This document shows, one piece after another, positions 18,035-23,799 of a stretch of DNA of 35,354 bases. Within the stretch, counting starts at the first letter, position 1. Each line of letters opens with the position of its first letter. The notes below the pieces were generated by a model. The model was not told where the DNA came from and did not search any database. It was given only the letters and a program-made list of their open reading frames with translations. This DNA is from a virus. Made by a program: the position numbers and the translations under genes. The stretch lies in the UHGV virus genome UHGV-0125936; one strand, 5' to 3'.

Positions 18035-18615
18035 TTATGCCAGCCTCCATGCGCGGCGGCGTTCTGTCCTCGGCTCGTTGTCAGGGTGACGCTCAACCGT
18101 CTGGAGGTCAGCGTGATCCACCAGCGAGTAACACGGATAAATCACCCGACCACCGAATGCCTCACCGACAGCGTAATCAGCTGCCAGCGTTTTGTTCCAT
18201 GTACTGAGCATGCGCGCCAAACTTCCCCGAGGAGGGCTATAACATACGCCGTGAATCAGTTTGCTTAATACGATGTGGTCACCACAGACGCGATCCGCAT
18301 CCACCAGCATTCCGGCAATCTCTTTCTGATACTGCGGCGGTCGGCCGGTACCGAGATAAAAGCTCAGCATGTCGTCAGGGAAGCGCACCAGCCATTCAGT
18401 TACCTTATCGGTGAAGCCCTGCACAGGAAGCGCGTCTTCTTCCAACACCACTACCCGGCAAGGTTGCTCAGCAGCCCATTCGATAGCGCGACGATGATTC
18501 CAGTTCGCGCCGCGGTTACCGTCATCAATAAGCAGATGAGCATCCAGCAGCGCGGCAAGTCGTTGCGCATGACCTATGCGAGAGTGATGGCCAACCACAA
18601 CAAACTTAATCTCTG
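18035..18615 (-). CDS. Putative nucleotide-sugar transferase-like (GT-A-like) protein
   Basis: 193 aa from ATGATG at 18615 (RBS GAGG upstream); KFVVVGHHSRIGHAQRLAALLDAHLLIDDG...VVVLEEDALP resembles GT-A/GT25-type N-terminus by eye only. Confidence 0.35.
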
Positions 18616-19115
18616 TCTGCATCATTATGGGTAAACACCTCATTACGGGCTCGTCGTGCAACCTCAGCAGCTTCATGCTTACAGTCAAAGTAACCAAGGT
18701 GATGCCGGGTACCATGCTCTTTATAATGAGCACACCATTTCTTCATATCCCGATTCCAAGTAACTCCACGAAATCCTGACGCAGAGGAGTGACGTTGCCT
18801 GTTTTCAGCGTTTTGTTTTGGTGTTGCTATTCGAAGATGTTTTGGGTTGACGCAAAGAGTGTTATGGCAGGTATGGTCAATCAAATATCCGTCTGGGATA
18901 GGTCCGTTGCTAAGTTCCCATGAAGCTCTGTGTGCAAGAATCATTTTTCCAGGCCCGCCAGCAGTAACTCCAGCTTTCAAATGCCCGTAAAATAAATACC
19001 TCCCACCGCCTATAGGACTCTTTCTCTTAGCCGCATTCCAGATCCAGCATTCATCTGGAGAAGCAACAACGACCTTTTCCCAGAATCTTTCACTGAAAGT
19101 TCTGGTCTTTTTCAT
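18606..19115 (-). CDS. HNH homing endonuclease with AP2 DNA-binding domain
   Basis: LIDHTCHNTLCVNPKHL HNH_3-like motif; C-terminal SGFRGVTWNRDMKKWCAHY...GYFDCKHEAA AP2-like. Confidence 0.75.
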   Translation of the reverse strand: MKKTRTFSERFWEKVVVASPDECWIWNAAKRKSPIGGGRYLFYGHLKAGVTAGGPGKMILAHRASWELSNGPIPDGYLIDHTCHNTLCVNPKHLRIATPKQNAENRQRHSSASGFRGVTWNRDMKKWCAHYKEHGTRHHLGYFDCKHEAAEVARRARNEVFTHNDADRD

Positions 19116-19121
19116 ATCAGC

Positions 19122-20579
19122 CTATTTGTGTTTAAACCAGGCGCATTCTTTGCCAATACCATCAGTCTTAAAAACTGTGTGGATACGCGGGCCGGTGACA
19201 ATGCGATCGCCAAGCGATTTAGCAACAATGCCAAAAGCGATCATATCCCCCACCGCGGCGCCAGCCTGTTCTTTCTTCCAGAATCGATAACTTTCGATCC
19301 GGTAGTAAAGACGGATGATGCCGTGAGCGAACGCCATTACATCAGCGCGGGTGCCACCCAGCAGGCCAGCGTTAAGCATCACATCGCCGCGGTGCGCTTC
19401 AATGAATTCCTGATAGATACGCTCAGGATGATTCTGTTTCGCCCAGGTGTCGGCGTATGTCTTCGGTTCAGAACCGACGTAAACATTCCCGGGCTGCATT
19501 TCTTCCCACGGTGCGCGGAGCATTTCGACATCGGTACCATCAGTACACCAGACGAACCGGTATTCAGGGTGATCTCGCAGGTGCTGCCAGATATGCAGCC
19601 AGCGCCGGAAGTAGACATTCATCTTCACCTCAGGAACGCGGTACAACTCAACATCTGCCGGTGGCGTCTGCAGTTCATCCACCAGCGCGATACGTCCACA
19701 CTGCCGGAGTGATGCGGCCCATTTAGCCAGCATCTCAGGCGAGGCCGCCATTTTCGTACCGCGCTGCGGGTCAGGCTGGCTGGTGAGCAACGTTGTGATT
19801 ACCACGTCGCGCTGCTTCCGGTATTCAACGTAACCGGTAAAGCCGGTATCACGTCGTTCGTTGTGGATCTTCACGTTACGTTCCACCAGCGCCTGGCGGT
19901 CGGGCCTCGGCACTGAACGCTCTACGGCCTCATGCTCATCGAGAGAATGGATCAGCTTTTCTGAACCGACGACATCAGCGTACGCCCACGTAGTCAGTCC
20001 TGCGTTATGGATGCGCAAGGCGAGGTCGCTGTGCTCGTACATGCCGCGACCATAAACCGGATCGAATCCGCCTACCTTCTCGATGGCGCTGCGGTGGTAA
20101 TAAAGCATCACGCCGCGCTGCCCGGTGTACGCCACATGCTGATCGTCACGGTAAAGCACCGAAAGGTCATTCAGCTTGTTCGTGCCAGCAAGATCGAGAA
20201 ACTGGTAAGCCAGGTGCGGCTCTGGTGATTCGATGTAAGGGAGGTGCCAGTTATCAGCGATAGGCCAGGCGTCATCATCCCATAAAAACAGATGCTCACA
20301 CCCGGCATCCATCAGGGCTGTCAGGCTGGCGTTCTTCGACGCAACAATGCCGAGTGATGTTTCATGGCGAAGCAGCTGCACGCCGTGTGGAACTACCGCT
20401 GCAGGTTTTGAACCATCATCGACTACCACCACCAGCGCACCGGCGGGAAGATGCTTCATGTGCTGTTCGAGTGCTCGCTTTAAAACGTCTGCGCGCTGAT
20501 GCGTCGAAATGGCAATGCCGATCCGTGATGAAACGACGCTGGCGGGAGCGTATGGGACACCATCAATAGTGACCTGCAT
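19122..20579 (-). CDS. Two-domain glycosyltransferase (N-terminal family-2-like GT-A domain; C-terminal second transferase-like domain)
   Basis: VVVVDDGS and LWDDDAW (DXD) motifs in N-terminal half; C-terminal half has CTDGTDV and NAGLLGG; RBS GGGAGG. Confidence 0.6.
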   Translation of the reverse strand: MQVTIDGVPYAPASVVSSRIGIAISTHQRADVLKRALEQHMKHLPAGALVVVVDDGSKPAAVVPHGVQLLRHETSLGIVASKNASLTALMDAGCEHLFLWDDDAWPIADNWHLPYIESPEPHLAYQFLDLAGTNKLNDLSVLYRDDQHVAYTGQRGVMLYYHRSAIEKVGGFDPVYGRGMYEHSDLALRIHNAGLTTWAYADVVGSEKLIHSLDEHEAVERSVPRPDRQALVERNVKIHNERRDTGFTGYVEYRKQRDVVITTLLTSQPDPQRGTKMAASPEMLAKWAASLRQCGRIALVDELQTPPADVELYRVPEVKMNVYFRRWLHIWQHLRDHPEYRFVWCTDGTDVEMLRAPWEEMQPGNVYVGSEPKTYADTWAKQNHPERIYQEFIEAHRGDVMLNAGLLGGTRADVMAFAHGIIRLYYRIESYRFWKKEQAGAAVGDMIAFGIVAKSLGDRIVTGPRIHTVFKTDGIGKECAWFKHK

Positions 20580-20590
20580 AAAACCTCCCG

Positions 20591-21469
20591 TCAGATTCCT
20601 CGCGACCGTGTATTCCAGAGGATGCCGCCTGGCTTGAGCGCATTGCGAAGAGCATCGTTCACCGCTTCGTGCATCGCCTGTTGCAAGCCAACTACTGAAG
20701 CTGTTTGCGCATCAATCTTTGCCTGGAGGGCTGCGAACAAATCGCTTTCGCGTACGGCGGAGATAATGGCTTCGCACATCTCATCATTGAGGCTGGTTTT
20801 GGTGGCATTATTACCATCAGCGGGATTAGCCTTATCATGACTAATTGCTCCAGGGAAGCCACCAAAAGACAAACCAACATTGAATGTCGTCTTTTCATTA
20901 TTGCTGGCTGATTGAGCGGCTTCATGCACCTTATAGCGATCAGCCATAAACTCAACGTTGCTCTGGCCATCTTCAACTCCGATGGTCATGCCAGCTGCGT
21001 ACCGTTTGCCACCATAATCCACGTTCATCTTCACGCTGTAGTTCGTAGACAATGTGCCATTGCCGATCAGCGCCTCGTGGATGTAAGCCTTGCCGGTTTT
21101 ATCAACAAACCAGCCACCTTTAAGGCCATGAAGTGCGCAGCTGTTACGGATCTCTTCGTCCAGCGCCTCAATAATCTCTTCGGTATCGACAGAAGAAACC
21201 CCTTCGATCCAGTCACCGGCTCGCCAATCTCGTGCTGAGCCATCTTCTGCAATTGGACGCAGGCGCACCTGCAATCTCTCACCAGCTTTGAGGCCGGAAA
21301 TAAGGCATACGGTAGCTGGCCAGAAGATGCGTTTTTTCATAAGTCGGCCATCTTCATGAAGGCATTGCAGTTCTAGCACCGCGCAGCCACCCGGCCATTT
21401 CCATTCGACGTCCACACCAAAAGGTTTGGGAGTGGTTTTTACGTAAGGGACGATTGAAGGTTCTGACAT
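20591..21469 (-). CDS. FN3-like + J-fibre-motif protein (paralog of a distal segment of the tail-tip J protein)
   Basis: 293 aa from MSEPSIV (RBS AAGGAAAA); KRYAAGMTIGVEDGQSNVEFMADRYKV and IHEALIGNGTLS match J in this window (QYYAAGMGIGVEN...FLADRFAV; IRDALIGDGTIS); N-terminal beta-rich FN3-like region. Confidence 0.5.
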   Translation of the reverse strand: MSEPSIVPYVKTTPKPFGVDVEWKWPGGCAVLELQCLHEDGRLMKKRIFWPATVCLISGLKAGERLQVRLRPIAEDGSARDWRAGDWIEGVSSVDTEEIIEALDEEIRNSCALHGLKGGWFVDKTGKAYIHEALIGNGTLSTNYSVKMNVDYGGKRYAAGMTIGVEDGQSNVEFMADRYKVHEAAQSASNNEKTTFNVGLSFGGFPGAISHDKANPADGNNATKTSLNDEMCEAIISAVRESDLFAALQAKIDAQTASVVGLQQAMHEAVNDALRNALKPGGILWNTRSRGI

Positions 21470-21729
21470 TTTAATTTTCCTTTTAGACGTGAGCCTGTCG
21501 CACGGCAAAGCCGCCGAAAGTAATCGGTTTGCCCAGGCTCACAGCTGAAAGACTTTCTTTGATGTGCGCGTGCGATGCGCATAAATGCCGCGCTATGCGG
21601 TTACTGTCTGAATATCAGGGTATTACTTCGTTCTAACCCCGGGTAAGGTAAGCATTCAGCCCGTCAGTGGTGGGACACTGATTCACGCAAAGAGGAGGAA
21701 TGGCTGAATAACTCTTCGAAGGAAAAAGG

Positions 21730-22194
21730 ATGATCACCAAAGTAAAAATCAAGTTTATTTCCCCTATTGATGGATCGGTATCAGATACCCCCACGGAGCA
21801 TGCAATTCCCGTAGTTCCATTGACAGTATGGCCAAGTAGCTCAAAAGATATAAACGTTTATAAACCAAATGGATTGAAGGCTGGTGCCTACGCACTTATA
21901 GATACCGGAGCAGATATTTGCTATGTGGATTCAGACTTTGCTGACGATTTAAAACTCCCAATCGCGGAAAAAACAACTGTGAGCGGAGCCACCTCAACAA
22001 TAGAAACTACAGTTCGGCATGCGGTAATATCGTTCACTGAGGACGAAAGAGTTTTTTCAACAGAATTGACTTCAGTGCCATTGGTAAGTAACGGGAGAAA
22101 ATTCCAGGTCGTTTTCGGAATGCAACTAATTAAAATGGGCGCCCTTACGATGGATTTTTCCAATCAAGTATTTGAGTTAACATTTTTTAACTAA
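21730..22194 (+). CDS. Retropepsin-like (clan AA) aspartic protease, moron on opposite strand
   Basis: ALIDTGAD active-site motif and downstream VVFGMQLIKMGALTMDF flap-like motif; RBS AAGGA; AT-rich relative to flanks. Confidence 0.65.
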   Translation: MITKVKIKFISPIDGSVSDTPTEHAIPVVPLTVWPSSSKDINVYKPNGLKAGAYALIDTGADICYVDSDFADDLKLPIAEKTTVSGATSTIETTVRHAVISFTEDERVFSTELTSVPLVSNGRKFQVVFGMQLIKMGALTMDFSNQVFELTFFN

Positions 22195-22338
22195 CCCCCC
22201 AGGGATACCTCCCTCTTTTGCAAGACTGGATAAGGGCATTGCTTTTGCTGTTTTCCTAAAATCGGTACCAGAATTGAGTTGCGATTTAATATCTTTTAAT
22301 TCGCTCTCAATTCTCTTTACACGTTCAGCTAAAGTCAT
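22177..22338 (-). CDS. Hypothetical 53-aa protein, convergent with and overlapping the 3' end of the protease gene
   Basis: ATG 22338 with RBS AAGAGG; MTLAERVKRIESELKDIKSQL...; below ORF-track size cutoff. Confidence 0.25.
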   Translation of the reverse strand: MTLAERVKRIESELKDIKSQLNSGTDFRKTAKAMPLSSLAKEGGIPGGLVKKC

Positions 22339-22432
22339 GATTGCCTCTTAATAATCGCTTAACATCTACAAAGCCTGCCCGAAGACAATACATACCATTA
22401 TCAAGCCCACCAGCAGGTGAGCTTTGTAATGG

Positions 22433-22690
22433 CTAACAGTCGTCATCTGGACGTGCTACAGCTCGACATGCGGCCATGCATGCGCGCTTCATATCGAGCT
22501 CTGCCTGGCGTATCCACTCAACAGCTTCCCAGTCGTGAGGAGTGCGTTGTACATCACCTACATGCTCACGCAGCAACTTAATAAACTGGCGGCTGAGATC
22601 CTTAAACTGGTTCATCTTGCCGATTTCACCGTAAGAGAGTTCGCGGTAGCCCTTAACGGTGCTTCCGTCCTGTGGTTTAGCTTCGCTCAT
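22433..22690 (-). CDS. Hypothetical protein downstream of spanins
   Basis: 85 aa from MSEAKPQ; no recognisable motif. Confidence 0.35.
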   Translation of the reverse strand: MSEAKPQDGSTVKGYRELSYGEIGKMNQFKDLSRQFIKLLREHVGDVQRTPHDWEAVEWIRQAELDMKRACMAACRAVARPDDDC

Positions 22691-22756
22691 CGGATTCTCT
22701 ATTTTTGGTGGGTATGGAAACTTACCCGCGATTGAATGTGAACACAGCAGCATGCT

Positions 22757-22972
22757 TCACTCCTGTTTCTGGCAGTTCGCCTGCCACGCTTTGTTATGCG
22801 CCAGGATGTCTTTCTTCGTCTGGCGGTCCAGAACGTCAATATCGTGGTTTGTCAGATAGATAATCCGGCTCCACAGGCAGCCCGTATCAATCACCACCGG
22901 GGCGGGTGAAGTTTTCGCGCAGCTCGCGATCAACATCGTCATCAGGCATGTGATTAACAGTCTGCTGGACAT
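22757..22972 (-). CDS. Rz1: Outer-membrane spanin Rz1 (lipoprotein), embedded/overlapping with Rz
   Basis: MSSRLLITCLMTMLIASC lipobox-like signal in alternative frame overlapping Rz 3' region. Confidence 0.55.
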   Translation of the reverse strand: MSSRLLITCLMTMLIASCAKTSPAPVVIDTGCLWSRIIYLTNHDIDVLDRQTKKDILAHNKAWQANCQKQE

Positions 22973-23162
22973 TACTGGCCTCTTTAGTGACTTCCGCTTT
23001 ACGTTCTGCCGCCGCAACGGTCGCCGCTGCATTCTCTTCGGTGCGCTGCTGGTTGGCTTTAGCCTCTGCTTTACTGGTGCCGCGAATATGGCCCAGGCCG
23101 AAAGCGCCAGCGATGGCGGCAATGACTGCTGCAGCAATACCAAATAAAGTTTCAAACCCCAT
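22887..23162 (-). CDS. Rz: Inner-membrane spanin Rz
   Basis: MGFETLFGIAAAVIAAIAGAFGL N-terminal TM then charged coiled-coil; immediately downstream of endolysin. Confidence 0.6.
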   Translation of the reverse strand: MGFETLFGIAAAVIAAIAGAFGLGHIRGTSKAEAKANQQRTEENAAATVAAAERKAEVTKEASNVQQTVNHMPDDDVDRELRENFTRPGGD

Positions 23163-23169
23163 AGTGACC

Positions 23170-23799
23170 TCACACCAGGACAGATTTCGCCAGGTTAAAC
23201 AGCGCGCGGCGTTTATCCAGCCCGTTACGTCCGCCATTGATAAGCAGCGTGACGCGCTCCACGTCGCCGGAATGGAGCAGGCATCCGTGCGAGACATAGA
23301 ACCATGCAGCTGAGCGAGCAGCATATTCATCCTGTTCCAGCAATTCAGGCTGGGTTACAAGGTCCAACTTCAGCGCGTGGCCACAGTTGCGGTAATTGCT
23401 GAGCCCGGTGATTTGCTTCAGGCCGCGACCGCGATATTTCCAGCCATCACCAGAAACCTGGTTGCCCAGGTTCTTTTTGCCCCACTCACCGCCGTAAACC
23501 AGATTGGCAATCGCTTTCTGATTTGCCGGCTGTGTTGCCGTTCTGCCAAGCGCGGCGGCCTGCTGTGCAGTAATGCGATGCTTGCCGAACGTAGGTACCA
23601 GGTTTTCTGCCGCATAGTTCAGGTTTTCCACCAGCCGGGTGAAACCGCCGGACTCATGGCCCATCTGCGCGATAAACATGGCCTGATCGAGCGGCGCGGT
23701 TATGCCGAATTCCTTCATTGCAGCATCGATATAGTGAAACCAGCGCACGGCTAGACCGGCGCTTATACCTGCCGCCTTTTCAAATTGTGTTTGGTTCAT
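23170..23799 (-). CDS. Endolysin, glycoside hydrolase family 19-like
   Basis: 209 aa; FIAQMGHESGGF...YGGEWGKKNLGNQ...GRGLKQITG motifs typical of GH19-type phage lysozymes. Confidence 0.8.
   Translation of the reverse strand: MNQTQFEKAAGISAGLAVRWFHYIDAAMKEFGITAPLDQAMFIAQMGHESGGFTRLVENLNYAAENLVPTFGKHRITAQQAAALGRTATQPANQKAIANLVYGGEWGKKNLGNQVSGDGWKYRGRGLKQITGLSNYRNCGHALKLDLVTQPELLEQDEYAARSAAWFYVSHGCLLHSGDVERVTLLINGGRNGLDKRRALFNLAKSVLV

Follow-up and report, generated by a model that had tools for sequence, protein, structure and literature searches.

A Retropepsin-Like Aspartic Protease Gene Carried Backwards in the Late Operon of an Enterobacter Prophage, Behind a Leader Shared with Many Other Cargo Genes

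Introduction

The ORF at positions 21730-22194 of virus genome UHGV-0125936, a stretch of 35,354 nucleotides referred to below as the window, is a real gene, and its product is a small HIV-protease-like enzyme carried by an Enterobacter prophage backwards in the late operon. The protein is an uncharacterized addition to two known kinds, the bacterial retropepsins and the phage morons. Considered jointly, the data presented here point, with a probability of roughly 0.6, to a homodimeric endopeptidase encoded by a moron that would be expressed independently in the lysogen and that may take part in conflict between phages. The identity of the protein is already annotated, since its exact sequence is present in NCBI, on 160 contigs (a close variant is found on 487), and is named in a RefSeq entry from Enterobacter hormaechei as a "retropepsin-like aspartic protease"; its biology is what has not been annotated. 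A more unusual by-product of the analysis is the leader that precedes the gene, which the protease shares with many other families of cargo. The features on which the following sections draw are collected in Table 1.

Table 1. Location of the protease gene, its motifs, its leader, and neighboring features in the window.
Feature	Position (nt)	Strand	Remarks
HNH-AP2 homing-type endonuclease	18606-19115	-	Overlaps the start of the glucosyltransferase ORF
292-aa protein with tail-tip-fiber domain	within 18035-21508	-	PF09327
485-aa glycosyltransferase	within 18035-21508	-	phrog_1579
232-aa glucosyltransferase	within 18035-21508	-	phrog_854
Mobile cassette of 0.96 kb (leader, protease gene, and 53-aa ORF)	21476-22436		97-98% nucleotide identity in L001-L008
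Terminator-type hairpin at left edge of leader	21587-21601	-	Weak in the window; elsewhere GCCGC...GCGGC followed by a minus-strand T-run
Conserved non-coding leader, ~130 nt	21587-21729	+	75-85% nucleotide identity to lambdoid phage/prophage copies
Candidate weak promoter	TTACTT 21623-21628, 15-nt spacer, TAAGGT 21644-21649	+	Putative; short spacer
Mini-ORF ATGGCTGAATAA, 3' arm of leader stem P1	21700-21711	+	Probably untranslated; GGCTGA forms the body of the mini-ORF
Shine-Dalgarno-like GAAGGA	21718-21723	+	6 nt ahead of the protease ATG; read from sequence
Retropepsin-like aspartic protease gene	21730-22194	+	154 aa, 16.8 kDa, pI 4.9, predicted soluble
Catalytic D58-T59-G60-A61	21901-21912	+	D, T, and G invariant and A nearly so in 40 homologs
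Probable flap, beta-hairpin of residues 78-101 with tip G86-A-T-S-T90 (nt 21985-21999)	21961-22032	+	From model and conservation
F129-G130-M131, hydrophobic-hydrophobic-Gly motif	22114-22122	+	Equivalent to retroviral I-I-G-R-D/N; G130 invariant
Convergent 53-aa ORF, start MTLAERVKRIESEL	22177-22338	-	18-nt overlap with the 3' end of the protease gene; putative coding
Weak terminator-like hairpin AGGGA-TACC-TCCCT, then CTTTT	22201-22219	+	Just past the protease stop; below scan threshold
106-aa ORF with Acb2/Tad1 hairpin domain	22433-22753	-	PF24729, E 2e-10, 41.1 bits against a cut-off of 27
Rz-type spanin	22887-23330	-	Lysis side of the protease
GH19 endolysin	23170-23799	-	Lysis side of the protease

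Identity and Predicted Fold of the Protease

The protease ORF runs from an ATG to a TAA on the plus strand, and the minus strand is the coding strand of every gene that neighbors it. GC content falls to 0.38-0.43 over 21650-22400, as compared with about 0.50-0.58 in the flanks, such that an initial description of this gene, made from the sequence alone, as AT-rich and transcribed against its surroundings was accurate. Comparison with copies 94% identical to it yields a dN/dS of 0.029/0.243 = 0.12; the protease is under purifying selection.

The sequence-only reading had proposed, from a DTGA motif and a presumed flap, that the product is a clan AA retropepsin-like protein, and had named two profile families as a check. 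Of these, Pfam PF13650 (Asp_protease_2) matches residues 54-131 with 27.1 bits against a gathering score of 24.3, while PF13975 (gag-asp_proteas) scores 25.1, just under its cut-off of 28.2. A word-indexed search for homologs recovered four clusters only; a profile search of 1.84 billion representatives returned 201 relatives at E ≤ 1e-3, with 39 at E ≤ 1e-10, nearly all of them 140-170 aa in length and matching the query from end to end. PF13650 is matched by 32 of the 40 sequences that were aligned to represent the family. Given a Pfam score above the gathering level and a set of relatives of this size, the ORF is real and its DTGA motif is more than a chance occurrence.

The sequences of the 40-member alignment are 23-53% identical to the window protein, except for one copy at 96%. 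Across this range P27, D58, T59, G60, and G130 are invariant, A55, L56, A61, D67, L139, and D142 are nearly so, and the motifs GATST (86-90) and NGR (121-123) are conserved. The hydrophobic-hydrophobic-D-T/S-G-A signature is present as A-L-I-D58-T-G-A, aligning with D25TGA of HIV-1 PR and with LLDTGAD of HTLV-1 PR, and the catalytic aspartate motif is thereby kept in the homologs of the window protein.

Structural prediction gives the same picture. Specifically, an AlphaFold2 model built upon the 40-sequence alignment, and representing a monomer, reached a pLDDT of 93.5 and a pTM of 0.87, superseding a poor model (pLDDT 63) built upon five sequences, and it displays the single-lobe beta-barrel of the retropepsin fold. 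A shallow profile compared with PDB sequences produced noise only. The family profile, when compared with HTLV-1 PR, matches the whole core (E 8e-5) and pairs P-V-V with the PVIPL N-terminus of the viral enzyme, and hhalign against HIV-1 PR maps the DTGA and flap motifs in the same manner. Matches in BFVD add uncharacterized retropepsin-like proteins of metagenomic phages. The fold assignment of the sequence-only reading is therefore supported by both the model and the whole-core match to HTLV-1 PR.

Its placement of the flap is not. The segment GMQLIKMG, originally taken to be flap-like, belongs to residues 130-143 (GMQLIKMGALTMDF) and aligns with IIGRD of HTLV-1 PR rather than with the VLGAGGQT flap; it was accordingly rejected as the flap and, on the basis of motif mapping by the family profile and by hhalign, corresponds to the retropepsin "ILG-R-D" motif (ILG-R-D/N), the profile segment iLGmsfl lying opposite IIGRDAL of HTLV-1 PR. 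The probable flap is instead a hairpin whose strands span residues 78-85 and 90-101 of the model, with a GATST tip that aligns with VLGAGGQT of HTLV-1 and with the HIV-1 flap IGGIGG. Thus, on each point open to testing, namely Pfam match, catalytic motif, fold, and flap together with the ILG-type motif, the protein has the properties of a clan AA retropepsin-like peptidase.

A Kyte-Doolittle scan of the protein found neither an N-terminal hydrophobic stretch nor any other hydrophobic segment (the top 19-mer, at residues 125-143, scores 1.08), and the protein should therefore be cytoplasmic. Its first ~25 residues extend beyond the retroviral core, the start of which is marked by the invariant P27-V-V.

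In Rickettsia conorii, the protease APRc is tethered to the membrane through transmembrane helices at its N-terminus and carries out the processing of surface autotransporters. The window protein is, like APRc (PDB 5c9b/5c9f), a retropepsin-like protease of bacterial provenance, but it is borne by a prophage and lacks an N-terminal transmembrane anchor. Similarly, while it shares 12-19% identity with retroviral proteases (HTLV-1, EIAV, RSV, and HIV-1 PR; MEROPS A2), it differs from them in being encoded by a bacterial prophage, in being free-standing rather than cut from a polyprotein, and in possessing, in addition to its N-terminal extension of ~25 residues, a longer loop (37-50) before the active-site strand. 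The RVP domain of Ddi1 resides in a eukaryotic multidomain shuttle with UBL and UBA domains, whereas the window protein carries no accessory domains. Among the known proteins that it resembles is RimB of Pseudomonas, a small, soluble, cytoplasmic aspartic endopeptidase with a DTG motif and a modeled homodimer, described in a study that calls free-standing retropepsin-like proteases rare in bacteria, with APRc, RimB, and few others having been studied (PMC11957791). In contrast to RimB, the window gene has no association with rimK or rimA and is found among phage lysis, glycosyltransferase, HNH, and terminase genes.

A Leader Shared by Unrelated Cargo Genes

The leader upstream of the protease recurs in phages mEp213, mEp043, HK633, ES18 (L104 1782-1934), vB_SosS_Oslo, 29485, HK022 (L105 1784-1936), SaltyDalty, and CharmingMan; the loci of the comparison set that hold copies include L021, L022, L106-L108, and L109-L188. 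It sits upstream of HK022 gp23, ES18 gp25, mEp213 gp72, and HK633 gp65, and every copy inspected is followed, after a few tens of nucleotides, by the start of a gene that runs opposite to the neighboring late genes. Within the leader, an invariant 25-mer (TCAGCCCGYCRGTGGTGGGACACTG) occupies 21656-21680, ahead of the protease ATG at 21730; this 25-mer is found on at least 120 IMG/VR contigs, and in 88 of the 89 copies analyzed an ORF starts ~50 nt past it.

The genes in this position comprise, in IMG/VR, at least 21 families that are unrelated by BLAST, most of them encoding proteins of 62-98 aa. One leader thus stands before a large number of unrelated small lambdoid genes, and the slot occupied by the protease gene is a widely shared one. 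Aligned leader copies show a mean column identity of 85% and the cargo proteins share only 15-28%, such that the leader is, as judged by alignment, better conserved than any of its cargo proteins. The protease accounts for nine of 88 cargo genes behind the leader, and a second protease subfamily (36-40% identity; L051, L056, L057, and L062) lies behind a diverged copy of it. Scans of the other cargo families with PHROG and Pfam models returned only families of unknown function, plus one DUF1883. As these other cargo families are all of unknown function, location in the cargo slot says nothing about the role of the protease. A PADLOC scan of neighboring genes and of the other cargo genes was negative, save for an OLD/Gabija-like ATPase beside one homolog. 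The DUF1883 cargo is an 87-aa protein at L113 (start about 7585; PF08980, E 4e-27), and the cargo at L179 is a 169-aa protein that belongs to no family.

Alignments of the leader suggest a structured RNA. An invariant 6-bp stem, P1 (TCAGCC...GGCTGA), appears stacked on an 8-bp hairpin, P2 (CGTCAGTG-GTGGGA-CACTG), one pair of which occurs as A-U, U.G, C-G, and G-C, giving three compensatory variants. Because several U.G pairs of the leader become mismatches on the opposite strand, a plus-strand RNA is favored. When folded as a single sequence, on either strand, the leader gained no stability over shuffled controls, and the structural argument consequently rests on the alignments; an Rfam search of 21300-22600 gave no match. 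The terminator-type hairpin that bounds the leader on its left likewise displays a compensatory change, from GCCGC/GCGGC to GCCAC/GTGGC, in ES18, Oslo, and HK022, and the ES18 annotation designates it 'gene 24 terminator'.

The sequence-only reading had also noted a three-codon mini-ORF preceded by a perfect AGGAGG ribosome-binding site. Both elements are present, the AGGAGG lying at 21693-21698, with only 1 nt separating it from the ATG. Among leader copies the length of the mini-ORF varies, ATA replaces ATG in one, and GGAGG is always located 1-2 nt from the ATG. For these reasons the mini-ORF is better read as leader structure than as a translated ORF, and the possibility that it is a regulatory upstream ORF was rejected.

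With regard to expression, a TAAKGT element is kept in 14 of 14 copies, spaced 15 nt from a preceding TTGCTT or TTACTT, and could represent a weak promoter from which transcription would start near 21656. Scans for sigma-70 promoters and terminators found no consensus promoter and no canonical terminator at the gene or at three homologs. An AAGGA-type purine block is found at the site of the Shine-Dalgarno-like element in 10-14 leader copies. The leader is a practical handle for studying the expression and exchange of morons.

A Mobile Cassette of the Moron Type

The term moron, in the usage of Juhala and Hendrix, denotes an insert that is expressed on its own within a phage operon. In keeping with the designation of the protease gene as a moron by the sequence-only reading, the gene is present or absent between conserved genes and differs in base composition from its surroundings, GC content being 0.40 as compared with 0.52. 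Specifically, by blastn, 21476-22436 keeps 97-98% identity across eight Enterobacter loci (L001-L008), in which the flanks are 73-92% identical or unrelated. The lysis cassette beside it may be of the GH19, GH108, or lysozyme kind, three in all, and several differing neighbors are found downstream; the occurrence of near-identical copies in such varied settings identifies it as a mobile unit. In mEp213 and HK633 the same slot is occupied by other genes.

The cassette shares its leader, its antisense cargo, a putative convergent small gene on the late strand, and a left-edge terminator hairpin with the HK022 gp22/gp23 and ES18 gp24/gp25 pairs, of which gp23 is annotated as a 'moron gene product' and gp25 as a 'possible moron'; on these sequence features it belongs to the HK022 gp23/ES18 gp25 type of moron. 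It differs from both in cargo, a 154-aa protease as opposed to a helical protein of 65-95 aa, and in location, the lysis/terminase junction as opposed to the tail cluster. In the latter respect the positional analog is bor of phage lambda, an opposite-strand gene that is located just after Rz and expressed in the lysogen: the window cassette, in an HK97/lambda-like Enterobacter hormaechei prophage, has the lysis genes on one side and the glycosyltransferase/terminase genes on the other.

Directly after the spanins, the window carries the 106-aa ORF with an Acb2/Tad1 hairpin domain, the fold of the anti-CBASS/anti-Thoeris nucleotide sponges, at a place where L001-L008 have 80-aa and 206-aa genes. 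On the other side of the protease lie genes for a tail-tip-like protein, glycosyltransferases, two HNH proteins, TerS, and TerL. The minus-strand accessory genes of 18035-21508 sit between the lysis genes and the terminase.

Relatives of the protease are numerous in IMG/VR (at least 86, of which 80 loci were kept). In contrast, tblastn found no homolog in 50,697 GenBank phage records, a collection of isolated phage genomes that under-samples prophages; a PHROGs search returned no family, and the protease family was not found in the literature searched. Species-representative genomes, one per species, contain a single weak relative. Such a distribution, rich in IMG/VR, absent from GenBank phages, and represented once among species genomes, fits a strain-variable prophage gene. 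The gene has a lower GC content than its flanks in 54 of 54 IMG/VR loci analyzed, and in 22 loci both flanks run counter to it, whereas in five both run with it (binomial 8e-4, for loci that are not independent and were surveyed by crude ORF calling). The family amounts to about 40-200 sequence clusters, encoded almost exclusively by low-GC genes that run counter to the late operons of temperate phages.

The settings of individual relatives vary. Those at 26-40% identity include some that lie antisense in tail clusters, either beside J or where K-like and I-like genes of the lambda type meet, one in a Pseudomonas prophage that lies antisense between a Q-like regulator and holins, and another that adjoins an IS element. 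In the region L012 1821-9288 (also in L013 and L014), a 155-aa homolog (38% identity) is located 380 nt upstream of a gene for a 622-aa ABC-type ATPase, which matches OLD, Gabija GajA, PARIS AriA, and Septu PtuA models and is followed by an HNH_2 protein and an HATPase_c_3 protein. This neighborhood, on metagenomic contigs, looks like a defense island.

Proposed Mechanism and Role

By analogy with every characterized retropepsin, the active form of the enzyme would be a homodimer to which each subunit contributes D58 from its DTGA loop. The hairpin of residues 78-101, with GATST at its tip, would close over the substrate as a flap, and the FGM motif, together with a helix, would support the active site. 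For its expression, the gene would depend upon the weak promoter and structured 5' UTR that the leader is predicted to supply, and would be transcribed independently of late transcription, which, being convergent, would oppose it. Since transcription from its own leader would be opposed by late transcription in this manner, the gene is expected to be expressed mainly in the lysogen, where the enzyme may cut a specific protein. If the protease is indeed produced in lysogens, finding what it cuts would uncover a novel type of interaction between prophage and host or between phages.

Such an activity would most plausibly serve competition with other phages, whether through exclusion or through abortive infection, or benefit the lysogen in some other way. 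A function in conflict is weakly suggested, by analogy, by three lines of evidence: the way in which opposite-strand morons such as lambda bor generally behave, the one neighborhood resembling a defense island, and the matches of relatives to PDC-M08B, a PADLOC candidate. Of the 40 family sequences, 11 to 16 match the PDC-M08B models at E ≤ 0.01 (best E 2e-6), and the window protein itself reaches only E 0.015; protein B of PDC-M08 is presumably retropepsin-like as well, the PDC entries being candidates rather than validated defenses. No PDC-M08A partner is present among the neighbors in the window, L012, L017, L019, L064, or L069, and the literature search yielded no link between retropepsins and prophages or phage defense and nothing relevant on PDC-M08. 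A stronger version of this idea, in which the family is a single-gene prophage weapon against competing phages and the structured-RNA-leader slot, along with convergent late transcription, switches cargo between lysogeny and the lytic cycle, is doubtful. Were it true, the protease would be the first aspartic-protease immune effector in bacteria, delivered by way of a hypervariable cargo slot.

Alternative Functions

An unlikely explanation is that the protease acts for the phage during infection or induction, as a counter-defense or host-takeover enzyme cutting a host immune or housekeeping protein. The Acb2-like gene that comes next in the window fits an anti-defense setting equally well, and the lysis-terminase region is, in the window, a cargo-rich accessory region. 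The Acb2-like neighbor is, however, peculiar to the window among the Enterobacter loci, and the protease gene is oriented against the late operon in most of its contexts. Moreover, the lack of a homolog in GenBank phages and of a PHROG family would be unexpected for a tool of the lytic cycle, although prophages are under-sampled among such isolates.

More improbable still is a two-gene module in which the convergent 53-aa ORF encodes a small protein that inhibits the protease, serves as its antitoxin, or directs its specificity, the two genes being coupled through their convergent transcription. Such an arrangement is suggested by the presence of this ORF beside the protease in every Enterobacter copy (L001-L008), by the overlap of the two reading frames, and by its AAGAGG Shine-Dalgarno site. 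It is further suggested by other cassettes, which have a convergent small ORF on the late strand with a MTLEQRVEALEK-like start, to which the N-terminus of the 53-aa ORF is similar; these ORFs have in common a MTL(E/A)(Q/E)RV..LEK start and have C-termini that differ with the cargo (for example, L021 1147-1305, as well as L109, L121, L131, L159, and L187). The start of the 53-aa ORF shares six of 11 residues with that of mEp213 gp71 (E 0.012). Nevertheless, with a dN/dS of about 0.6-1, selection on the 53-aa ORF appears weak, its C-terminal codons lie on the strand complementary to the protease gene's 3' end and terminator hairpin, and it has no match among PHROG, Pfam, or PADLOC families, nor by tblastn among GenBank phages. 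Relatives of the protease at 34-40% identity have no partner of this type, and a convergent ORF was seen, by a crude scan, in 34 of 88 cassettes. A family-wide partner gene, as a toxin-antitoxin pair would have, is thus not found, the 53-aa ORF being confined to the Enterobacter cassette. In view of the shared start and the cargo-dependent C-termini of the small ORFs, the right-hand boundary of recombination seems to fall inside them.

The chances are slimmer again that the protein serves in the assembly or maturation of virions, with tail or head proteins as its targets. Many relatives do sit inside tail gene clusters, flanked by lambda K-like and I-like genes or beside a J-like gene; their orientation, however, is opposite to that of the structural genes, their GC content is lower, and they are present in some and absent from others among similar prophages, and the window gene itself is at the lysis/terminase junction, away from the tail genes.

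Inactive retropepsin homologs usually lose catalytic or flap residues, and a catalytically dead fold serving as a binding or scaffold protein, an idea that draws on the model being that of a monomer and on activity being predicted from sequence, is the least credible reading of all, given that neither D-T-G nor the ILG-type glycine varies among sequences only 23-53% identical, in which the flap motif and the last residue of DTGA also show strong conservation.

Separate from the function of the protease is an observation concerning the left side of the cassette, where a long inverted repeat (GTGAGCCTG...CAGGCTCAC) lies at 21480-21585, just left of the leader. This repeat is 95% identical in HK639, in which it is annotated as a terminator, as well as in mEp390, mEp213, and several E. 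coli chromosomes.
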